Source: Chloroflexota bacterium (GTDB lineage: Bacteria > Chloroflexota > UBA11872 > VXOZ01). Taken from it: DNA of 64,000 nt. The DNA is taken from positions 384,001 through 448,000 of the forward strand of contig OZ244922.1 in the NCBI GenBank assembly GCA_965221905.1, written 5' to 3'. The translations under genes and the position numbers were made by a program. Each line of letters opens with the position of its first letter. Position 1 is the first letter of the stretch. Of the stretch, positions 13,832 to 58,161 are shown in pieces. The notes beneath the pieces are model-generated. The model was not told where the DNA came from. It saw only the letters and a program-made list of their open reading frames with translations, and made no database searches.

Positions 13832-14896
13832 CTAGGAAAGTTCCCAGGCGTTCGGGTCCAGGCCCATCTCCCGGGCTGAATCGCAGAGTTTTCCCCAGGT
13901 GGTCTCGTCTATGGGGATACCCGTCTTTTCGCGTTCGCGCTGGGCGCGGTATTCCGGCTCGCTGGGAACCAAGACTTCTATGACGCCGGGAGCCGGGCGG
14001 CTTGTCTTCACGTGGCTGATGAGGGTTTCCAACTCGTCGTAGAAGAAATCCGGCTCGACGAATTGCGCAATGTCGTAGGCGGTGATGTGGACGCCGTTAC
14101 TATCCACACGCATGTCGCCGGAGGACATGCCCTGACCACTCAGGCCGCCGCCGCAGATCTCATTCATCATGCTGAGGGCAGTGCCTTTGTGTCCCAATGG
14201 GCCGCCCAGAGGAAGCACGGCGCCGCGCGGTTCTTTCCAGTAGTCGCTTGGATTCGTGCTGGGATTGCCTTTCGCATCGACGATCCAACCTTCCGGCAGT
14301 GGCTTACCCTGGTTGGCGGCCACTTTGATCTTGCCGTCAGCGACGGTGGACGTGGTCATATCCACGAAAAATGGCGGGTTGGCACGGCGGGGCGCCGCGA
14401 AAGCCAGCGGATTCGTGCCCAGGCGGCCGTCTATGCCGCCAAAAGGCGCTACCTGAAAGCCCAGCCGGCCTGCATTGACGAAAATCAGCCCCATCAAGCC
14501 GGCCTGCGCCACCATATGGGGATACTCGCCCACTCTACCGATGTGGCTAGTATTACGCAGCGAGACACTGGCTATGCCGTATTGTTGTGCCTTCTCTATC
14601 AAGAGCTTCGTGGCAAAGACCGCGCCCACCTGACCGAACCCGTTATTCGCGTCCACTACCGCAGTACAGGGATGTTCGCGCACGACTTCCGGTACTGCTT
14701 GCGGATCGACAACCTGTTCTTCTCTTACAGCACGCCAATACTGTTCCATACGCACTACACCGTGGGAGTCATGGCCGTAGAGGTTGGACTGTACCAAGTG
14801 ATCGGTGACAATCCGGGCGTCATCGGGACGACAGCCCAGGGCAGTGAAGAAATCGTAGCCAATGCGGCGCAAGGCATCAGCGGTAACGGTAGGCAC
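13832..14896 (-). CDS. Ldh_2 (malate/L-lactate/2-oxoacid dehydrogenase) family oxidoreductase, tandem copy 3
   Basis: GHDSHG, SHIGR, VAPFGG...LGTNPLAFAAP, DMTTS, GWIVD, LPLGG..GHKG. Confidence 0.93.
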   Translation of the reverse strand: MPTVTADALRRIGYDFFTALGCRPDDARIVTDHLVQSNLYGHDSHGVVRMEQYWRAVREEQVVDPQAVPEVVREHPCTAVVDANNGFGQVGAVFATKLLIEKAQQYGIASVSLRNTSHIGRVGEYPHMVAQAGLMGLIFVNAGRLGFQVAPFGGIDGRLGTNPLAFAAPRRANPPFFVDMTTSTVADGKIKVAANQGKPLPEGWIVDAKGNPSTNPSDYWKEPRGAVLPLGGPLGHKGTALSMMNEICGGGLSGQGMSSGDMRVDSNGVHITAYDIAQFVEPDFFYDELETLISHVKTSRPAPGVIEVLVPSEPEYRAQREREKTGIPIDETTWGKLCDSAREMGLDPNAWELS

Positions 14897-14997
14897 AGGC
14901 CGCTCCTTTCAGCATTCCACAAGTCGTATTTGAGCAGAGACTTCGGTATGGTTACGTGCAAGCGAGGCGGTATTCCGTTCAGGTCTTCGGCGTCACG

Positions 14998-16062
14998 CTA
15001 GGAGAGTTCCCAGGTGTTTGGGTCCAGCCCCATGTCCCGGGCTGAATCGCAAAGCAATCCCCAGGTGGTATCGTCAATGGGAATGCCGTTGCGTTGGCGT
15101 TCGCGCTCGGTGCGGAACTCCGGCTCACCGGGAATGAGTATCTCCGCGACACCCGGCGCCGTGCGGCTCGACTTCATGTGGCCGACCAGGGCTTCCACCT
15201 CATCGTAAAAGAACTCCGGATCGGTGAACTGTTCGATGTCGTAGGCCGTAATGTGGACGCCGTTGCTGCTAAAGCGCATGTCGCCTTGGGACATGCCCTG
15301 ACTGCTCAGTCCTCCCCCGCAAATCTCCATCATCATGCTTAGCGCAAAGCCTTTGTGCCCCAGGGGGCCGCCAAGCGGGAGCACGGCCCCACGCGGTTCG
15401 CCAAAGTAGTCAAGCGGGTTCGTGCTGGGGTTGCCATCCACATCGACGATCCAGCCTTCCGGCAATAGCTTTCCCTGGTTGGCGGCGAGGTAAATCTTGC
15501 CGTCGGCGACAGTAGAGGAGGTCATGTCCACCAGAAATGGCGGGTCGGCGCGGCGGGGTGCGGCAAAGGCCAGCGGATTCGTGCCCAGGCGACCGTCGAT
15601 GCCGCCAAAGGGTGCTACCTGAAAGCCCATCCGGCCGGCATTGACGAAAATCAGGCCGATCAAGCCGGCCTCCGCCACCATGAGTGGGTACGCACCTACC
15701 CTTCCAATATGACTCGTATTGCGCAGCGAGACACTGGCTATGCCGTGTTTTTGCGTCTTCTCAATTAAGAGCTCGGTTGCGAAGGTCGCGCCCACCTGAC
15801 CGAACCCATTGTTCGAGTCCACCACCGCTGTGCAGGGATGTTCACGCACGATTTTCGGTACCGCTCGCGGGTCAACACGATGTTCTTCCCGTACCGCGCG
15901 CCCATACCTTTCCATGTGCACCACGCCGTGGGAATCATGCCCGTAGAGGTTGGATTGCACCAAGTGATCGGCGACAATTCGGGCGTCAGCGGGACGGCAG
16001 CCCACGGCGGTGAAGAATTCGTAACCAATGCGGCGCAAAGCGTCGGCGGTAACGGTAGGCAC
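14998..16062 (-). CDS. Ldh_2 family oxidoreductase, tandem copy 2
   Basis: Same motifs; near-identical N-terminus MPTVTADALR and AAAGGAG RBS. Confidence 0.93.
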   Translation of the reverse strand: MPTVTADALRRIGYEFFTAVGCRPADARIVADHLVQSNLYGHDSHGVVHMERYGRAVREEHRVDPRAVPKIVREHPCTAVVDSNNGFGQVGATFATELLIEKTQKHGIASVSLRNTSHIGRVGAYPLMVAEAGLIGLIFVNAGRMGFQVAPFGGIDGRLGTNPLAFAAPRRADPPFLVDMTSSTVADGKIYLAANQGKLLPEGWIVDVDGNPSTNPLDYFGEPRGAVLPLGGPLGHKGFALSMMMEICGGGLSSQGMSQGDMRFSSNGVHITAYDIEQFTDPEFFYDEVEALVGHMKSSRTAPGVAEILIPGEPEFRTERERQRNGIPIDDTTWGLLCDSARDMGLDPNTWELS

Positions 16063-16134
16063 AAACGGCTCCTTTCGGCATCAGGTGAGTCTTGAATGTT
16101 TCGCTCTTGCTTGTGGAAAACTTGGCAACACCCC

Positions 16135-16349
16135 TTCCCCCTTGATTGGGAAGGTCGGGAAGGGGATGAAGAGCGGCTTCACGGCTAGAATTCCCAAACC
16201 ACCCACACCCCTCTGGATTCCGGCTTTCGCCGGAATGACGGAGTGGCTCAAAGGTCTCTCTAAGGAGAGGGTGTGTTTTCGCCCGTCGGACCCGGTAGTG
16301 CATCGGACTGAAAGTCCGCACCTGCCCCGCACGTGATGCGGGGGTCTCC
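16135..16349. repeat. Composite palindromic cassette, copy 2
   Basis: Colinear with 13596-13761 plus an internal insertion of roughly 50 bp. Confidence 0.8.
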
Positions 16350-16473
16350 ACGTGGGAGTTCCACCGGGCAGCGCTAACTGATTCATGTATCCTGCCATAG
16401 AAATAGGCGCCATCGCACCTGGAACCCTACATCCGCCCGCCTCGTTTGCCGCGTTCAGGGCTGCGTGATCACG

Positions 16474-17535
16474 CTAGGAGAGTTTCCAGGCGGTTGGATC
16501 GAGGCCGATTTGACGCGCTGACGCGCAGAGCTTCTCCCAGGTGGTGTCGTCAATGGGGATGCCCGTCCGTTCGCGTTCGCGCTCACTGCGGAATTCCGGC
16601 TCGCCGGGAACGAGTATTTCCGCGACGCCGGGCGCGGTGCGGCTCGACTTGACGTGGCTGACCAGGGCTTCCACCTCGTCATAGAAGAAGTCCATGTCCG
16701 AGAAGCACTCAATGTCGTAGACGGTAAACAGCACACCGTTGGCGGGTGAGCGCCTGTCGCCGGACGACATGCCCTGACCGCTCAGGCCCCCGGCGCAGAG
16801 CTCCATCATCATGCTCAGCGCGTAGCCTTTATGGCCGAGCGGGCCGCCCAGCGGCAAGATGGCGCCGCGCGGCTCATCCCAGTAGTCCTGTGTATCCGTG
16901 CTGGGCCTGCCTTCCGCATCGACAATCCAACCTTCCGGCAGCGGCTTGCCGAGATTGGTGGCAATGCGGATTTTGCCATCGGCGACGGTGCAGGTGGTCA
17001 TGTCCACCATGATGGGAGAGTCGGCACGGCGCGGCGCGGCGAAAGCCAGCGGATTCGTGCCCAGGCGACCGTCGATGCCGCCGAATGGCGTTACCTGAAT
17101 GCCCAAGCGGCCGGAATTTACGAAGACCAGGCCGATCATGCCGGCTTGGGCAATCATGATGGCGTATGCTCCTGCCCTGCCGATGTGGCTCGCCCTACGC
17201 AGCGACACGCTCCCTAGGCCGTGCTGCCGCGCCTTTTCTATTGCCAAATTCGTGGCCAGGACTGCGCCCACCTGCCCAAACCCACTGTGCGCGTCTACCA
17301 CCGCCGTGCAGGCGCGATCGCTCACAATTTCCGGTGCTCCTTGGGGATTAACGCGCCCTTCGCTCACGGCGCGCGCATATTCATACATGCGCAGGAGGCC
17401 GTGGGAATCATGACCGTAGAGGTTGGATTGCACCAAGTGGTCGGTGACGACTTGGGCGTCATCGGGACGACAGCCCAGAGCAGTGAAGAATTCTTGGCCG
17501 ATGCAGCGTAGGGCGTCAGCGGTGACGGTAGGCAC
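16474..17535 (-). CDS. Ldh_2 family oxidoreductase, tandem copy 1
   Basis: Same motifs as the two downstream paralogs. Confidence 0.93.
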   Translation of the reverse strand: MPTVTADALRCIGQEFFTALGCRPDDAQVVTDHLVQSNLYGHDSHGLLRMYEYARAVSEGRVNPQGAPEIVSDRACTAVVDAHSGFGQVGAVLATNLAIEKARQHGLGSVSLRRASHIGRAGAYAIMIAQAGMIGLVFVNSGRLGIQVTPFGGIDGRLGTNPLAFAAPRRADSPIMVDMTTCTVADGKIRIATNLGKPLPEGWIVDAEGRPSTDTQDYWDEPRGAILPLGGPLGHKGYALSMMMELCAGGLSGQGMSSGDRRSPANGVLFTVYDIECFSDMDFFYDEVEALVSHVKSSRTAPGVAEILVPGEPEFRSERERERTGIPIDDTTWEKLCASARQIGLDPTAWKLS

Positions 17536-17645: not shown

Positions 17646-17939
17646 CTAGCTACTGGGATAGGCGGCGACCTTCTCGATGAGGGCATCTACCGCGGCTTCT
17701 TCCATAATCAACTGCGGCCCATGGGGGAAGTCTGCGTGCTTTGCTACGCGGCCGCGGCGTTCGAGCGCGCACTCCCAGCCATCGTCGTTATGTTCGGCAC
17801 GCGTTATCTGGAGAACGTACCCATTGGCAAACGGCACCGTATAGCGCTCGTTGATGCGGAGGCACCAATCATTGGGCAGTTCCCTCCGAAAGGCGCGCCA
17901 CGGCAACTCCGGCTGCCAGACTTTTTGTCGCACTGCCAT
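17646..17939 (-). CDS. Hypothetical protein (97 aa)
   Basis: ATG preceded by AAGGGAG; fills the gap upstream of the Ldh trio; no recognisable motif. Confidence 0.55.
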   Translation of the reverse strand: MAVRQKVWQPELPWRAFRRELPNDWCLRINERYTVPFANGYVLQITRAEHNDDGWECALERRGRVAKHADFPHGPQLIMEEAAVDALIEKVAAYPSS

Positions 17940-18025
17940 CAGTTATGCTCCCTTACTTAACGTACTCGCCAGAGCACTCATCAGACATGATACTGTGCGG
18001 AGCTTGCCGCGTACAGTCCTTTAAA

Positions 18026-18055
18026 GGACGCAGGTTGCAAACCTGCGCTACCGGA
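18026..18055 (-). repeat. GTAG-type REP, family D (single copy)
   Basis: Exact reverse complement of TCCGGTAGCGCAGGTTTGCAACCTGCGTCC found in the 27.1-27.5 kb array; degenerate copies at 39913-39940 and 40142-40165. Confidence 0.85.
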
Positions 18056-18144
18056 AAGCGAGTAAGTCCTTTTGCTCCAGCAGGCCGCGCGGGATAGAAT
18101 AAAGCAAAGACGCGTTAAGTACTCATCGCAGAAAATGAGCAAGT

Positions 18145-19422
18145 ATGTTTGACATCGGCCTGCCGGAACTTATGATCATCCTGTTGCTGGGTCTGGTCCT
18201 GCTGGGACCGGACCGCCTGCCTGGGGTGATTCGTCAGGTGACCGGCGTTGTCCGAAAGCTCCGCTCGAGCTATGGCGACGCTTTGGCTACTTTCAAGGAC
18301 CAACTCGGCGACGTTCAGGGAGATATCGACGCCATTCGCGGTGAAATCTCCTCCATCCAGGGTGAATTCCGCTCTACTGCGGAAGACGTACAAAAGGACG
18401 TGGAGAAGGTTGAGGGCGAGGTAAAGTCTGCCGGTGCGGAAATACAGCGCGACCTCGACAAGACGACAAAGGAGGCTGCCGGAACACGCCCAGACCAGAT
18501 CGGGGCGGAGACCAGTGCGCCGCCACCGGCCGTTACTACCGAGACCTCTCCGCGCCCTAATCTGAGCGACCGCGGCGCTGCCTGGACACCGCAAGGAGCG
18601 CAAGCCGGCAGCGGTTCGCCGGTGCAGCAAGACCTCTTTGCCGGATTGATACGCAGCCTCAAGGTGCGGCTGGGCGACGACTGGTTAGTCGAGCAGGCGG
18701 AAATCTATCGGGACCTCGGCACGCGCGCCGCGCAGAGAAACGGCGACGGCGAGCAGGACATTGCGGCCTTGGTGCGCACGTGGGCGGATATGCACCGGAA
18801 CACGCTTCCCGAGGGCAGCCTGCAAATCATCGAGACAGGTAGAGATTACCGTGTGCGCATGCGCCAATGCCCGTTTGGATTTGCCGATACCGACGATAAG
18901 GCGCTCTGCCAGTCGTGCGGCGCATATGACCTGGCATTCTTGCAAGAGCGCGCTGCCGCAGTGAAGTGGGAGTCGCATCTGACCGCAGGCGATCCCTGGT
19001 GTGAGTTGGTATTTGCAAAGCCGCCCCCACCGCCAGCCCCGGAACCCGCAAATGATGAAGTAGAGGCAGAACCCGCTGCTACTGCCAATGGGGACAATGC
19101 CGTCGCTTCTACGGTTTCAGCGCCATCAGCGGCACCGCAGCAAGCAACTAAAAGTAGCTCGGCCGACTCTGCCCCTGCCGACGGATCTGAGTTCACGTCT
19201 CTCGCACAGGCATTTGGCAAGACTGCGGAGGATGTGGGCCAGCCGGAAGCCGCAGCCGCGGATACGCCGGGCGATGGGGCGGAAACAGAAGAGATGCCGG
19301 GAGATCGCACCGACGACGCAACCGCTCAGGCGTCCGTTGCGAAACCGTCGGCTGCTGAAGTTTCGACGGATGGTGACGCGACTAACAAAGTCGGCTCCGG
19401 CAAGAAAGAGACTACCCCATGA
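18145..19422 (+). CDS. tatB: TatB/TatA-family translocase subunit fused to a Cys-containing V4R/ATC-hydrolase-like domain and an acidic disordered tail
   Basis: MFDIGLPELMIILLLGLVLLGPDRLP TatB signature and amphipathic helix; internal QCPFG...LCQSC...HLTAGDPWCELVF. Confidence 0.75.
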   Translation: MFDIGLPELMIILLLGLVLLGPDRLPGVIRQVTGVVRKLRSSYGDALATFKDQLGDVQGDIDAIRGEISSIQGEFRSTAEDVQKDVEKVEGEVKSAGAEIQRDLDKTTKEAAGTRPDQIGAETSAPPPAVTTETSPRPNLSDRGAAWTPQGAQAGSGSPVQQDLFAGLIRSLKVRLGDDWLVEQAEIYRDLGTRAAQRNGDGEQDIAALVRTWADMHRNTLPEGSLQIIETGRDYRVRMRQCPFGFADTDDKALCQSCGAYDLAFLQERAAAVKWESHLTAGDPWCELVFAKPPPPPAPEPANDEVEAEPAATANGDNAVASTVSAPSAAPQQATKSSSADSAPADGSEFTSLAQAFGKTAEDVGQPEAAAADTPGDGAETEEMPGDRTDDATAQASVAKPSAAEVSTDGDATNKVGSGKKETTP

Positions 19423-20015
19423 GGGTGGAGACCTTCGTGCGGGGGCCGCTCCAAAACAACGTCTACCTTCTGTGCGACGAGCACAGTAACGAAGCGGCAA
19501 TCATCGATCCGGGAATTGGCAGCGACGATCTGCTGAAGACCATCGAGGAACAGCAGCTTCGTCTGCGCTACGTGCTCGTTACCCACGCTCACTTCGATCA
19601 CATAGATAACGTCGCTCTCTTCCGCGAGCAGACAGGCGCAAAAGTTGTGTTGCATCGCGCCGATGCAGCGGCGCTTGAAGAGCAGGCGGGAGTGGCTGCC
19701 GACGTGCTCCTGGACGGCGGCGAAGAATTGGCGCTCGGCAGCCTTACCCTCCAGACATTCCACACGCCGGGACACTCCCCCGGCGGCGTTTGCTTCTTGG
19801 TAGAAGACCACCTGTTTGCAGGCGACACGCTCTTTGCCGGATCCATCGGGAGGAGCGATTTCCCTGACAGCGATGGTGCGCTGCTGCTCCGAGCGATAGC
19901 CGAGAATATCCTGCCGCTGCCCGATGCGACCCACGTGCTTCCCGGCCACGGCGAGGCAACTACGGTCGGTACAGAGCGCGCCAACAATCCCTTCCTGCGG
20001 GGGCTAGTGGGGTAG
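19419..20015 (+). CDS. MBL-fold metallo-hydrolase (glyoxalase II/YcbL-like)
   Basis: THAHFDH, HTPGHSPG, GDTLF.GSIGRSD, PGHG; overlaps the tatB stop (ATGA). Confidence 0.92.
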   Translation: MRVETFVRGPLQNNVYLLCDEHSNEAAIIDPGIGSDDLLKTIEEQQLRLRYVLVTHAHFDHIDNVALFREQTGAKVVLHRADAAALEEQAGVAADVLLDGGEELALGSLTLQTFHTPGHSPGGVCFLVEDHLFAGDTLFAGSIGRSDFPDSDGALLLRAIAENILPLPDATHVLPGHGEATTVGTERANNPFLRGLVG

Positions 20016-20803: not shown

Positions 20804-21556
20804 ATGAATGTCATGAACAATGAAGAGACCCACGACCACGAGCATAACCAGGGGCGCTCGATTATTGCCCGGCAGCCGTACCGTCCGCCGCCATGCGAGG
20901 CAGACGACCAGGTAGAAGCGGCGGCAGAGCAGCATGCCGGCGAAACCCATGGCGGCGACGCGCATGCTCACGACGAGCACCAGCAAGCCGCCGAGACAGA
21001 TGAGCACGCCCATGACGCGCACGGGCATGGTGAGGCCGCCGCGGTTTCGTCCCCCGACGAGCACCGCCGCGCCGGCGCGGAGCAATTTCCTTCTATCGAG
21101 TGCGCGGTAATTACGGTGAGCGACTCCCGCACGGAACTTACCGACAAGTCCGGGGCGCTCATCCAATCTATGTTGCAGGAGGCCGGCCACGAGGTCGTCG
21201 GCTACCGGTTGGTGAAGAATGACGCGCAGCAAATCACGCAGGCGCTGACCCACATGCTGGCGGGCCGCGCGCGCTTCGTAATGTTGACCGGCGGCACGGG
21301 ACCCGGCACGCGGGATATCACAGTGGAAACGGTGCAGTCGCTGCTAGAGAAGGAGCTCACGGGCTTTGGGGAACTCTTCCGTATCTTGAGCTATGAGGAA
21401 ATTGGCGCAGCGACGATTCTGAGCCGCGCCACAGCCGGCCGCATCGGGAACAAATTCGTCGTCTGCTGCCCCGGCTCGTCCGGCGCCGTCCGTCTGGCGC
21501 TCAACGAAATTCTCATTCCGGAGCTAGCGCATATTCTGCGCGAAATGAATCGGTGA
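20804..21556 (+). CDS. moaB: MogA/MoaB-family molybdopterin adenylyltransferase-like protein with His-rich N-terminal extension
   Basis: VITVSD, DKSG, TGGTG...DITVE, GFGELFR, LSRATAG, CPGS motifs; GGAGG RBS. Confidence 0.85.
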   Translation: MNVMNNEETHDHEHNQGRSIIARQPYRPPPCEADDQVEAAAEQHAGETHGGDAHAHDEHQQAAETDEHAHDAHGHGEAAAVSSPDEHRRAGAEQFPSIECAVITVSDSRTELTDKSGALIQSMLQEAGHEVVGYRLVKNDAQQITQALTHMLAGRARFVMLTGGTGPGTRDITVETVQSLLEKELTGFGELFRILSYEEIGAATILSRATAGRIGNKFVVCCPGSSGAVRLALNEILIPELAHILREMNR

Positions 21557-22675: not shown

Positions 22676-24046
22676 ATGAGCATATCACGCCGAAAATTCC
22701 TGCTCGCGGCAGGCGCACTGCCGGTGCTGCCGCTATTGGCGGCTTGTGGCAGCAGTATTCCCGATTCAATCCGTCCCGGTGGTGATGACAACGTGCCGAC
22801 AGTGCACGTGGTAGCGCCAAACATCACCCTCATCTCCGCTACCAATCTCATCCGCGCCATTGAAGCCTGGAACGGCGGCGGCATTGAGACGGCCGGGCCG
22901 AGAGAACGCTTCCGCATCTCCCTGCAGATCATCAAGGCCCGTGATGACGGCGGAGTAACCGCCAGCGGCAGTCCGCCGACGTGGACGTACTTTCGCCGCG
23001 GCATCGACGCCGAGGCCGCAGCCGGGCGTCCGGCGGACATTGTCATGCTTACCGGCGGCATATTCACGCTGCCGGGTATTGCCAGCCCGCTCTTTGGGCC
23101 GCTCAACGACTACGTGCAGCGCGACCGAGGCTTTCTTAACGAGTTTGTCACCCAGGCAGTGGAGACGACAACGTTTGGGGGGCGGATACAGGCGGTGCCG
23201 GTGGTGCTCGGCGCCGGTGTGATGGCATGGCATCAGGATCGCTTCAATGACACCGACCTGCCGCCGCCGCCCGCAACGTGGACCTGGAACGATTTGGTGG
23301 CGATGGGCCAAGAGTTTATGACCGCGGCGCGTGAGCGCAACAAAGACAAGTGGTGGGCGATTAGCGAGGGTGTCTATACGGCGCTCTGGGCGCACCTCAT
23401 GACGCAGGCCGGCGGCGGCGTGTTGGACATGAGCGAGGGGCGGCTGAGCCTCACGTCTGCGCAAACTCAGGAAGCGCTTGAGTTGTGGCGCGATCTCGCT
23501 TACACGCACCGCATCATGCCGACAAGCGCCGACATGACCTACCACGACATGACGCGCTTGGTGCCGCGCAGCGAGGCCGCGCTCCATCACGCCATGATCT
23601 ACTCCGGCGAAAACATCGGCCGCGACTGGAAAGTGCAGCACTCGCCGTCGTTTGCCGGAAACGCCAACAGTTCGCTCTACGTGATGGACGTTTTGGGCAT
23701 CCACGGCAAGTCAGTGCAAACCGAGTTGGCATATGAGGCTATCAAGGTGCTCGCGCCCTATGTGGCGGAGCGCTCGATGGTGCCGGCCTGGATTCCGGCC
23801 CTCAAGCACGTTGAAAAACCTTCCGGCGAACGACCGGAGCTTGCGATGGTGGAAGAGCGCGTACCGGTGGTATTGGAGGTGTTGCGCAGCGGCCGGGGCA
23901 CGACGACTCTCCCCTGGACGGAGATCGGTACACTGCTGCAAAGGAACCTCATCCGGCCGCTCTACACCGGCGAACGTACCCTGGCCAATGCCACCGAACG
24001 CGCCACCCGCGCCGTCGCCAACGCCCTGCCGGGAGTTTTGGTCTAG
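22676..24046 (+). CDS. Extracellular solute-binding lipoprotein (ABC, carbohydrate-type), Tat-exported
   Basis: SRRKFL twin-arginine motif, LAAC lipobox, PPATWTWNDL motif. Confidence 0.8.
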   Translation: MSISRRKFLLAAGALPVLPLLAACGSSIPDSIRPGGDDNVPTVHVVAPNITLISATNLIRAIEAWNGGGIETAGPRERFRISLQIIKARDDGGVTASGSPPTWTYFRRGIDAEAAAGRPADIVMLTGGIFTLPGIASPLFGPLNDYVQRDRGFLNEFVTQAVETTTFGGRIQAVPVVLGAGVMAWHQDRFNDTDLPPPPATWTWNDLVAMGQEFMTAARERNKDKWWAISEGVYTALWAHLMTQAGGGVLDMSEGRLSLTSAQTQEALELWRDLAYTHRIMPTSADMTYHDMTRLVPRSEAALHHAMIYSGENIGRDWKVQHSPSFAGNANSSLYVMDVLGIHGKSVQTELAYEAIKVLAPYVAERSMVPAWIPALKHVEKPSGERPELAMVEERVPVVLEVLRSGRGTTTLPWTEIGTLLQRNLIRPLYTGERTLANATERATRAVANALPGVLV

Positions 24047-27096: not shown

Positions 27097-27517
27097 CTGA
27101 ATCACGCAGCAGGCACGTAACAATGCCTCCCATTGGATCCGGTACCGCAGGTTTGCAACCTGCGTCCTGAATCACGCAGCAGGCGCGTGACAGTACGCCC
27201 CATTGGATCCGGTACCGCAGGTTTGCAACCTGCGTCCTGAATCACGCAGCAAGCGCGTAACAGTGCGCCCCATTGGATCCGGTAGCGCAGGTTTGCAACC
27301 TGCGTCCTGAATCACGCAGCAGGCGCGTAACAGTGCGCCCCATTGGATCCGGTAGCGCAGGTTTGCAACCTGCGTCCTGAATCACGCAGCAGGCACGTAA
27401 CAATGCCCCCCATTGGATCCGGTAGCGCAGGTTTGTAACCTGCGTCCTGAATCACGCAGCAGGCGCGTAACTATGCCCCCCATTGGATCCGGTAGCGCAG
27501 GTTTGTAACCTGTGTCC
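27097..27517. repeat. Tandem array of 6 x 70-bp units, each carrying a GTAG-type REP hairpin (BIME-like)
   Basis: ATCACGCAGC recurs at 27101, 27171, 27241, 27311, 27381, 27451; each unit has GTA(G/C)CGCAGGTTTG(C/T)AACCTG(C/T)G. Confidence 0.95.
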
Positions 27518-27715
27518 GCTTGATGACGGGTAAATTCTCTAAATCGCATTTCCTCCCATTCGGAACCGTTAAGGCTGCGCCTTCGAAGGAATCCATGGAG
27601 ACGCTTAGCGTGCCGAACAAGGCGGGCGGAGGTCCGTTTCTGTGCTACAATGGGCGTATTCAACCTGCAGATTCACACTATTTAACACATTTTGCATGCG
27701 GAGGCGTGGGAAAAC

Positions 27716-56460: not shown

Positions 56461-57894
56461 CTATGAGACCGCGGTACGCACGGCCTGTTCGATAACAGGC
56501 ATCATCTCCGCCACAGGTCTCTGACCGGAAATCGCTTGGCGCAGCGGCAGCGCCAGGTTGCGCCCCAGGGCTTGGCGTCCCACTACGGGCGACGGGCCCT
56601 CCTGGTCGAGCAGATCCAGGTACTCCAAATACGTAGGAGTGAAACTCGTCACCAGTTTGGCCATGGGGTATTTCCATTGCGGCTTGAAGGGCAATGTCAT
56701 GTCGGTGTTGCCCAGGTAGTCCTGCAGCGTTTCCCTGGTGTAGAGGAACGTAAGCAGGTCCCACCCCGACGTGGCGTTATCGGCGACTTCGGGAATGGCA
56801 ATCTGGTGCGACCAGACCTGTGTCGCGCCCGCGCTTCCACTCGGCCCCTTCGGCAGCGGCAGCCAGTGGAACTGCAGATCCGGATTAACTGACTGTTCCT
56901 CCGATTGCACGCGCACGGCGTGATTGATTGCGTCGGCGTTTACGACCGCCATTGACGCGCGCCCGTTCACAAAGAGGTTAGCGGTGTCAACGTAGGGCGA
57001 CGGGTCGCCGCTCACCTTATCCACGGTCACCAAATCTGCCAGGAACTGTAGCGCTGACTGTGCATCAGCGTTGTTTACCACAACAGCGCCGCCATCGGCG
57101 TTATTTTGGAAGAGGCCCGTATTGTTGCTGTAGAGCCAAGTCAGGACTTGGAGCCAGTCAGAACTAACGTGCATCCCCGGACGTTGTACGGTATCGCCAT
57201 CACGCTGGGTGAGTTTGAGCGCAGCTTCGCGCAGATTGTCCCACCCCCACTGCTTGAAAGCTTCCACGTCTACAGTTATGCCGGCCTCTTCCATGTGTTT
57301 GGCATTGATCGCCAACCCGATGGCCTGCGGATCGTCATAAGGAATGGCGTAGGTCTTCTCGTCGAAAGTCGCGTAGGGCAGCACACCCTTGACGAACTGC
57401 TGCAAATTGACCGTGCGCGGCCAACTCAGGTATTGCGTAAGGTCCCGCACCAGCGAAGCCTCAGCCCAACTTGGGAGCGCGCCCATTGGCACGTGCACGG
57501 CGTCCGGCCCGCCTTGGCCGGCGGCTGTGGCTTGCGCCAGGCGGTTCTCCACCTCTCGTTGGCTCCCCAAGAAAACCGGTTCCAACGTATTGCCCGTGCG
57601 GGCGGCAAAGAGGCTTTGCACGTCGGTAAGCCATTGCTGAGTAGGGCCGGAGGCCCATGTCCAGAAATTCACAAGGCCGGGACTGCGAATAATGGGCCTC
57701 GGCCCTTCGACCGGCGTCGGCGTAATTGGAATAAACGCCGTGGGTGTGGGTACGCACGGTCCATCACAGGCGCGGCGGTTTATGCCGGCGCAAGCTGAGA
57801 GAAGCGATGTTGCGGCGGCACCGAGACCAAGAGTGCCCAGGGTGCGGAGCACACGCCGACGCGAGTGTTCAGATGAGACTAATTCAGTTTTCAT
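56461..57894 (-). CDS. Extracellular solute-binding lipoprotein (ABC, carbohydrate-type), Tat-exported
   Basis: SRRRVL twin-arginine motif, LSAC lipobox, YAIPYD, WGWDNL..AA.KLT, LPKGP; GGAGGT RBS. Confidence 0.85.
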   Translation of the reverse strand: MKTELVSSEHSRRRVLRTLGTLGLGAAATSLLSACAGINRRACDGPCVPTPTAFIPITPTPVEGPRPIIRSPGLVNFWTWASGPTQQWLTDVQSLFAARTGNTLEPVFLGSQREVENRLAQATAAGQGGPDAVHVPMGALPSWAEASLVRDLTQYLSWPRTVNLQQFVKGVLPYATFDEKTYAIPYDDPQAIGLAINAKHMEEAGITVDVEAFKQWGWDNLREAALKLTQRDGDTVQRPGMHVSSDWLQVLTWLYSNNTGLFQNNADGGAVVVNNADAQSALQFLADLVTVDKVSGDPSPYVDTANLFVNGRASMAVVNADAINHAVRVQSEEQSVNPDLQFHWLPLPKGPSGSAGATQVWSHQIAIPEVADNATSGWDLLTFLYTRETLQDYLGNTDMTLPFKPQWKYPMAKLVTSFTPTYLEYLDLLDQEGPSPVVGRQALGRNLALPLRQAISGQRPVAEMMPVIEQAVRTAVS

Positions 57895-58161
57895 GAGGCG
57901 GTTACCTCCGTCCTGCAAGTGCCGCTAGGCGTTCTGTATGCCCTGCAATCTTTGCATATGGTGATGGTTACTTAAGCGAATAGCTTACCCTACCTATTCC
58001 TAAGTAGTCTACGCCCTTTGTCGCGGATTTGCCACCTGCCGGCACTTCCTTCAATGGGCTTTTCTTAGGAACTTCTTACGTGGGAACGATATGCCCCCAA
58101 TAACACTGTGCTACGATGAAGTCAAGGCATACGTAACATAGGAGTTGAGGAGAGGGCATAT

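Follow-up and report, generated by a model that had tools for sequence, protein, structure and literature searches.

Here, we describe a TatB protein that carries a folded domain inside its cytoplasmic tail. TatB is the receptor-side subunit of the twin-arginine translocation (Tat) system. The gene lies in a 64,000-nucleotide stretch of DNA (hereafter, the window) from a Chloroflexota bacterium (GTDB lineage Bacteria; Chloroflexota; UBA11872; VXOZ01; GenBank assembly GCA_965221905.1, contig OZ244922.1, positions 384,001 to 448,000 of the forward strand). An earlier note, made from the sequence alone, had proposed that the gene encodes a TatB joined to a small-molecule-type domain. The architecture, a TatB with a folded domain in its tail, is real and is conserved in three bacterial families, and we hold this with near certainty. 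On balance, we favor the following reading of the whole: the protein is a TatB with an acquired V4R-type domain, which would serve as a metal-stabilized sensing or quality-control module on the Tat receptor.

Layout of the fusion protein

The segments of the fusion open reading frame (ORF) are given below, with the AlphaFold predicted local distance difference test score (pLDDT) where it defines them.

18145..19422 (+): whole TatB-fusion ORF, 425 aa plus stop
18145..18216 (+): TatB transmembrane (TM) helix, aa 6–20, with E8 and the G21-P22 hinge (TIGR01410/PF02416; AlphaFold helix 6–20)
18217..18477 (+): amphipathic helix running on as a single long helix or coiled coil, aa 25–111 (AlphaFold pLDDT 70–86)
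18478..18618 (+): disordered linker, aa 112–158, with conserved islands TRPDQxGAE and GAAWTPQG (pLDDT <50 at 113–157; invariant columns)
18619..19020 (+): predicted V4R/Bet3-fold, ATC-hydrolase-related three-Cys domain, aa 159–292 (AlphaFold, fold searches, hhalign)
19021..19419 (+): Pro-rich stretch, then acidic Ala/Glu/Pro disordered tail, aa 293–425 (pLDDT <50; identity 0.36 in the genus)
19183..19218 (+): GSEFxxLAQAF island in the tail, aa 347–358, a weak predicted helix (S348, F350, L353, and A354 invariant)

The full-length AlphaFold model was built from a 33-sequence alignment and has a mean pLDDT of 60.7. It comprises the TM helix (6–20), one long helix (25–111), a disordered stretch (113–157), a compact domain (159–291), a second disordered stretch (307–348), a weak helix (349–363), and disorder again to the end (364–425). 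The model shows no confident docking of the SEF motif in the tail, or of the TatB helices, onto the domain. By TatB topology, the three-Cys domain is cytoplasmic. Identity within the genus is the same for the domain and for the TatB helices (0.84 each); it reaches 0.96 in the TM segment and only 0.36 in the tail. The helix at aa 25–111 spans about 87 residues and draws only weak, coiled-coil-type matches from Pfam. Linker length ranges from ~45 residues in the window protein to ~150 in one of the other families (f6, below).

These data bear out the TatB TM segment and amphipathic helix of the earlier note, via the TIGR01410 and PF02416 matches, E8, and G21-P22. The globular segment that it had placed at 18625–19017 corresponds to aa 161–291, and AlphaFold folds aa 159–291. 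The motifs that it had listed lie where it put them: CPFG holds C242, LCQSC holds C255 and C258, and GDPWC holds C286. The Ala/Glu/Pro tail is likewise there by composition, with 29 Ala, 23 Asp plus Glu, and 10 Pro in aa 301–425 (125 aa).

Conserved islands punctuate the disordered regions. The GSEFxxLAQAF island has an identity of 0.67 in the genus, and the helix predicted at 349–363 has a pLDDT of about 52. A terminal GKKETTP island (19396–19419), after the domain, is conserved in the genus within an otherwise variable disordered region. In families f4 and f6 and in proteins P0039–42, a DAMxxAIxxTF-like motif occurs in the linker ahead of the domain (linkers of L062–L069 and L073). Judged from their sequences, the conserved islands may be docking helices.

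Distribution of the fusion

A word-indexed protein search returned 38 homologues at 63–99% identity, 37 of which carry PF02416. The few with names are each a "hypothetical protein" from metagenome-assembled genomes (MAGs) of Chloroflexi/Chloroflexota. Among genome-contig loci, the full architecture is present in 15 of 46, and the other 31 match the TatB N-terminus alone. We then surveyed the class as a whole, that is, all 98 species genomes (97 plus the window's own). The earlier note had reckoned with a fusion confined to this assembly; the domain is present in 72 of the 97 other species genomes, once per genome, in frames of 354–503 aa that contain no internal stops. By family, the domain matches are as follows.

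f1 (the 16 genomes of the genus): 16/16, with the window's own genome in addition
f6: 38/38
f4: 18/19; the one genome without a match is an 80%-complete MAG
f5: 0/9
f2: 0/1
f3: 2/14, marginal

In an even sample of the phylum (401 genomes), strong matches occur in f1, f4, and f6 only (45/45); the remainder yield 2/355, both marginal and partial. Domain and TatB matches share frames in the class genomes, and in all 36 sequences inspected directly, the TatB N-terminus and the domain lie within one ORF. The identity of the domain between the genus and the two further families is only 15–21%. A narrow genus profile (A2) detects 16/16 genus genomes, 1/44 other class genomes, and 9 proteins among 1.84 billion representatives. 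Its distant matches, P0039, P0040, P0042, and an ORF of genome G059, are TatB fusions too. Thus, A2 badly underestimated the family, and the broader profiles A5 and A6, to which the distant fusions had been added, corrected the count. Stand-alone copies of the domain subfamily were sought at near-domain length and none was found; the matches are C-terminal fragments of fusions.

RNA-library contigs from two studies cover the gene at about 95–99% likeness and span the TatB start through the domain. One of them, 1083 nt long, begins at 18143 and extends through the domain. These contigs show presence in RNA libraries rather than proven transcription, and gaps in their cover (for example, X22 over about 18710–19000) carry no meaning.

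The fusion is the TatB of its lineage

TatB is defined by an N-terminal TM helix with a glutamate at or close to position 8, by a Gly-Pro hinge, and by an amphipathic helix. E8 and the G21-P22 hinge are invariant in 33/33 aligned fusions. Residues 2–72 score 54.3 bits against the TatB equivalog TIGR01410 when the ORF is searched, which is borderline (cut-off 56.5), and 56.7 bits, over the cut-off, in a six-frame search of the genome. PF02416 behaves similarly: 20 bits on the ORF (cut-off 21) and 22 bits in a second search. The orthologous fusions in f6 and f4 score 57–72 bits with TIGR01410.

The 3.52-Mb single-contig genome has one TatC (209 bits), ~1.65 Mb from the fusion, and only two genes of the TatA/B family: the fusion and a typical short TatA (58 bits) ~1.17 Mb away. 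The earlier note had remarked that no tatC adjoins the fusion, which these distances confirm, and had called for a search for another tatB or tatC; the genome holds the single TatC and no second TatB-type gene. The fusion is the sole TatB-type gene of the genome, and therefore it is the genuine and only TatB of the lineage and not an additional paralogue. A TatB-type gene was found in 61/61 relatives searched, over the cut-off in 43. The earlier note had also counted several Tat substrates in the window. In a crude motif scan, two ORFs have clear twin-arginine N-termini (22676–24046, +; 56461–57918, −), and a third is doubtful.

The window protein shares with Escherichia coli TatB and plant Hcf106 the TM helix with E8, the Gly-Pro hinge, the amphipathic and further helices, and a disordered tail. 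Its gene, the sole one of TatB type in the genome, stands away from tatA and tatC. The protein differs in the ~135-residue folded domain inside the tail. To our knowledge, classical TatB tails contain no globular domain.

Fold and kinship of the three-Cys domain

Modeled alone, the domain reaches a pLDDT of 84.2 and a predicted template modeling score of 0.77, with the order alpha3-beta2-alpha-beta2. Foldseek matches (E 1.3e-3 to 3e-2; TM score 0.45–0.59) are mostly Bet3/TRAPP subunits, the PoxR/MopR/DmpR sensor domains, and BcsD, along with a few designed proteins. An all-against-all VIA search of 48,161 chains yielded Bet3 (Z 9.7), TRAPP subunits, PoxR (7.8), BcsD (7.7), and DmpR (7.5), and, lower among the top matches, the V4R domain of MJ_1460 (Z 6.4), YslB, and H-NOX (6.0). 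In a second VIA comparison, Bet3 scored Z 10.6 (136 aligned residues, root-mean-square deviation [rmsd] 4.2) and MopR 8.2, and 49/50 among the matches listed belong to the V4R/Bet3/H-NOX fold class. From these comparisons of models with structures, the domain very probably belongs to that fold class.

Bet3/TRAPPC3, a core subunit of the eukaryotic and Asgard TRAPP complex, is the best structural match. Its identity to the domain is 7–13%, it is part of a soluble vesicle-tethering complex, and no such Cys triad is implied for it. An origin of Bet3 from V4R has been proposed (PMC2253512). The V4R sensory domains of the phenol-responsive sigma-54 activators DmpR, PoxR, and MopR match in fold (Z 7.5–8.2 over 134–141 residues), and a Cys cluster is present in both. 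In contrast, there is no sequence-level match, the Cys spacing differs, and the window domain resides on a translocase subunit, whereas theirs are coupled to an AAA+ or DNA-binding output.

A sequence-level connection comes from a group of 256–264-aa proteins, P0043–46, that contain the same domain. P0043 passes the ATC_hydrolase model PF14196 (34.7 versus 28.1 bits), and P0044 falls just under it at 26.9 bits. When the profile of TatB-fused domains (A6) is aligned by hhalign to that of the P0043 group (A8), the probability is 96.2% (E 2.4e-9, 137 columns), with the Cys and Asp residues aligned. Among the 17 fused A6 domains, 4 have weak matches to MetOD1 (PF18546) and 2 to ATC_hydrolase (best E 0.0047, sub-threshold); the fusion at locus L062 matches PF14196 at E 0.032, also sub-threshold. 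MetOD1, V4R (PoxR, MopR), and ATC hydrolase have in common a cluster of three conserved Cys, according to the available text of PMC5847659. That cluster is present here as C242, C255, and C286, which align with the Cys of the PF14196-positive group.

Direct tests of the window domain were negative. It gives no match to PF14196 at E≤10 and so does not reach the gathering threshold of 28.1 bits. PF02830 (V4R) matches neither the window domain (E≤10) nor any of the 17 A6 members (E≤1), and NCBIfam assigns the window's domain to no family. In the ESM Atlas, scores did not exceed 0.81 and so were at chance level; at rank 9, a cluster containing 12% ATC_hydrolase is a lead only. By structure, profile link, and Cys signature, the domain is most closely related to the ATC_hydrolase/MetOD1 branch. 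We file it as a new, divergent subfamily of the V4R/ATC-hydrolase/MetOD1 superfamily. With both direct tests negative, it does not count as belonging to either PF14196 or PF02830, but as a relative. The domain lies below every threshold and has a different architecture, and its relation to ATC_hydrolase and MetOD1 is one of sequence profile and Cys signature. The V4R-like fold and the ATC-hydrolase link suggested by the earlier note have thus held up, through the fold searches and the 96.2% hhalign result.

Proteins P0044–P0046 (256–264 aa, metagenomic) represent the only non-TatB architecture found for the domain subfamily. Ahead of the three-Cys domain, their N-termini give weak winged-helix hints (Fe_dep_repress, PaaX; E 0.02–0.06). 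This layout would fit a ligand- or redox-sensing transcription factor.

The cysteine triad and a putative metal site

The Cys residues of the domain, together with the most conserved Asp, are listed below.

18868..18870 (+): C242, first triad Cys (CP motif)
18907..18909 (+): C255, second triad Cys
18916..18918 (+): C258, extra Cys (CxxC), in this genus only; Ser, Asn, Val, or Arg in other families
18928..18930 (+): D262, invariant in A6 (17/17) and at least 90% conserved in A7
19000..19002 (+): C286, third triad Cys (GDPWC)

All four Cys are invariant in 22/22 aligned genus-level homologues. The earlier note had drawn attention to the CxxC in LCQSC; this motif is indeed present in the window protein and the genus, but C258 is genus-specific and only three Cys are general. 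The triad C242/C255/C286 occurs in 30/33 aligned fusions and in 5/8 further ones, covering 8 of the 10 genera examined. The six sequences that lack it belong to genera g4 (5) and g17 (1) and carry Asp, Ala, and Thr in place of the three Cys. None of the 33 + 8 fusions shows a partial state. Thus, the triad is kept or lost only as a set, as one unit. Such all-or-none behavior is what a shared metal site would give, and we consider it rather probable, from the pattern of residues, that the triad forms one.

Other positions are conserved independently of the Cys. W213, P243, and Y261 are invariant in all 33 sequences, and D262 and G282 are present in at least 90%. The triad-less g4 and g17 proteins keep W213, P243, and Y261, nearly always G282, and also D262, save for a Glu in one g4 fusion (L083) among the 8 further fusions. 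The joint loss of the triad in these two small-genome genera constitutes a natural experiment.

Two precedents exist for Cys clusters in V4R domains. In DmpR, the V4R domain holds Zn by means of C151/E172/C177/C185, next to the ligand (phenol) cavity (PMC7264223, available text). In MsvR, a helix-turn-helix–V4R redox regulator of methanogens, three conserved V4R cysteines mediate a redox switch by controlling a redox-dependent conformational change (PMC3729527, available text); the likeness to the window domain is one of Cys count. MsvR is a transcription factor and not membrane-bound, unlike the TatB fusion; the P0044–46 relatives may, on their weak Pfam hints, have a winged-helix-like N-terminus before the domain, as MsvR does. 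We imagine that the triad, perhaps with D262 (and with C258 as an added fourth Cys in the genus), would hold a structural or redox-sensitive metal, probably Zn. A putative site of this kind would be similar to the Cys3-Glu site found in the V4R sensors DmpR, PoxR, and MopR.

What the domain could do for Tat

The membrane-extrinsic part of TatB contacts folded substrates and has chaperone-like quality-control activity, as stated in the available text of PMC9436932. The notion is that the cytoplasmic tail of TatB acquired a folded domain. Suspended from the long helix and the flexible linker, this domain would sit beneath the TatBC receptor, at the place where tails of TatB meet the folded portion of substrates. 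In that position, it could bind a small hydrophobic ligand or cofactor, or it could sense redox state. If so, sensing would tune substrate acceptance, quality control, or receptor assembly. By analogy with V4R sensors, the domain could serve sensing or quality control instead of a purely structural purpose; we propose this tentatively. A still more specific version, and one that we regard as unlikely, is a built-in checkpoint in which the metal-Cys V4R-type domain would read a ligand or redox signal or a substrate surface and switch TatBC between accepting and rejecting. The signal could be cofactor availability, a hydrophobic metabolite, thiol redox state, or the cofactor-loaded surface of the substrate itself. 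If true, proof-reading would be built into the translocase itself and not left to separate chaperones.

Several observations weigh against a sensing or quality-control module. At the level of the assignment, the window domain matches no Pfam model at E≤10 and has no PDB sequence match by single sequence or profile, the sole match being a de novo TIM barrel at E 1.9. The AlphaFold alignment of the domain was shallow (20 sequences), the Foldseek E-values are weak (best 1.3e-3), and the VIA rmsd values are 4–5 Å. At the level of the metal site, the spacing here is C-x12-C-x6-D-x23-C versus C-x20-E-x4-C-x7-C in DmpR, and because the spacing differs, a homologous Zn site is not established. Genera g4 and g17 lack the triad yet keep the domain and TatC (5/5 genomes); therefore, the triad is not essential to Tat. 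Neither is the domain general within the class, with no convincing match in f5 (0/9), f2 (0/1), or f3 (2/14, marginal only). Conserved neighbors hint at no ligand, and the neighboring gene for a metallo-β-lactamase (MBL)-fold hydrolase is genus-specific. Finally, in E. coli, the TM helix and the amphipathic helix suffice for transport (PMC9436932, available text).

The main rival is an oligomerization scaffold. According to this explanation, the domain di- or multimerizes and ties together TatB protomers or TatBC receptors, it senses nothing, and the triad is a structural staple. The closest structural matches do assemble: Bet3 and TRAPP subunits, BcsD filaments, and the interlocked sensory-domain dimer of DmpR. 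That g4 and g17 have lost the triad but kept the domain and TatC fits a replaceable staple, and ligand-related neighbors are not conserved across families. However, the non-Cys residues W213, P243, Y261, D262, and G282 are conserved across three families, and the conserved core Trp, a putative counterpart, recalls the ligand-site Trp of DmpR. A linker that ranges from ~45 to ~150 residues is also loose for a fixed scaffold. Weighing these points, we consider the scaffold somewhat doubtful.

A second alternative, and an improbable one, is a membrane-tethered enzyme: an active ATC-hydrolase relative (C-S hydrolysis of a thiazoline-type ring) for which the TatB part is mainly an anchor, with the MBL hydrolase or Ldh_2 dehydrogenases as partners. 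The kinship to PF14196 points this way, as does the genomic setting in the genus. Specifically, the MBL gene follows the fusion directly.

19419..20015 (+): MBL-fold hydrolase, 198 aa, GloB-like (MBL198; PF00753, E 2.4e-29)

The stop codon of the fusion (TGA, 19420–22) overlaps the start codon of MBL198 (ATG, 19419–21) as ATGA, and, as judged by ORF lengths and MBL starts, the MBL start lies one base ahead of the TatB stop in all 15 genus loci. Ldh_2-family genes stand beside the fusion in f1 and in 3/4 f4 loci. Against an enzyme, a direct PF14196 match fails for the window domain, and MBL or Ldh_2 genes are near the fusion in 0/5 f6 loci. Genera g4 and g17 retain none of the candidate catalytic Cys, yet the Ldh_2 neighbor persists in their loci L067 and L069. 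Nor can the only TatB-type gene of the genome encode a mere anchor if the organism uses TatABC. Two points thus make the enzyme unlikely: g4 and g17 do without its putative catalytic Cys, and its metabolic neighbors are not conserved across families. Coupling of the fusion to an MBL hydrolase, as the earlier note had described it, is correct for the window and for 15/15 genus loci, but it does not extend further: no MBL198 homologue occurs in the flanks of the fusion at any of nine f4 and f6 loci (0/9). Therefore, the coupling is a genus trait and not part of the module.

The weakest alternative, that a chimera, a lost-stop read-through, or a misassembly joined tatB to a separate gene, has as its sole cue that the C-terminal two thirds of the protein lack a Pfam model, and it is refuted: the fusion is one ORF in 16/16 genus genomes and in two further families at 15–21% domain identity, the matches have no internal stops, RNA-library contigs bridge the TM region and the domain, and no stand-alone subfamily copy was found, so the fusion is not an artefact.

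Surroundings of the gene

The gene order in the genus is hyp97(−), TatB fusion, MBL198, MoaB, MBL274, SBP, with hyp97 present in 14/15 loci and MBL198 in 15/15. The 97-aa hyp97 ORF (17646–17939, −) runs divergently to the fusion, matches nothing in Pfam or NCBIfam, and is 87–99% identical in those 14/15 loci. Divergently upstream of the fusion are three tandem Ldh_2-family (malate/L-lactate dehydrogenase-like) paralogues (13832–17535, −). In 3/4 f4 loci, an Ldh_2 gene lies directly downstream of the fusion (L067:2476–3492, L069:4470–5465, L062:3223–4293); this is the case in 0/5 f6 loci. The MoaB-type molybdopterin-binding protein (20804–21556, +) has an N-terminal extension of ~95 residues with a very high content of His, Asp, and Glu; from this composition, the extension could be a metal-binding tail.

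A 28-nt hairpin repeat lies between genes upstream of the fusion (18025–18052), and tandem copies occur at about 27141–27518. Genome-wide, there are 91 copies at ≤3 mismatches (44 forward, 47 reverse), versus 0 for a reversed control. Some are arranged in tandem, the sets having periods of 57, 70, 114, and 129 nt, and RNA-library contigs break at the repeat. It looks like a repetitive extragenic palindromic (REP)-type element. A CRISPR reading was rejected: copies are singly dispersed, and the tandem sets differ in period.

TatB tails as a possible platform, and why the fusion matters

A different module occurs in a sister family. In f5, TatB (L070:3341–4690, +; L071:3321–4847, +) has no V4R-like domain and instead has a very long acidic tail that ends in UPF0175 (PF03683), scoring 33.2 bits in L071 and 25.7 bits in L070 (cut-off 27.9). 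The presence of UPF0175 on a sister-family TatB suggests that TatB tails in the class serve as a platform for accessory domains, with alternative modules at the C-terminus.

Our literature search found no paper that combines TatB with V4R, 4-vinyl reductase, or ATC hydrolase, and the literature on TatB in Chloroflexi, on its domain architecture, and on C-terminal extensions yielded no description of the fusion. In a 2026 review on the evolution of Tat (PMC13673990), the passages brought up by a term search make no mention of a globular TatB fusion. We regard the protein as a real and conserved variant of TatB that is apparently undescribed.

It has long been an open question how Tat distinguishes folded proteins that are loaded with their cofactor from immature ones. 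Part of Tat quality control has recently been assigned to the flexible cytoplasmic region of TatB (PMC9436932, available text). Here, a whole lineage has put a discrete domain of a known sensor fold on the TatB tail, and this domain lends itself to separate expression, mutation, deletion, and structure determination. If the domain serves as a scaffold only, it would still be the first globular module found on a protein of the TatA/B family, within the literature searched. If it is true that the domain modulates export, the fusion would give a natural and tractable entry point to the proof-reading or regulation of Tat.

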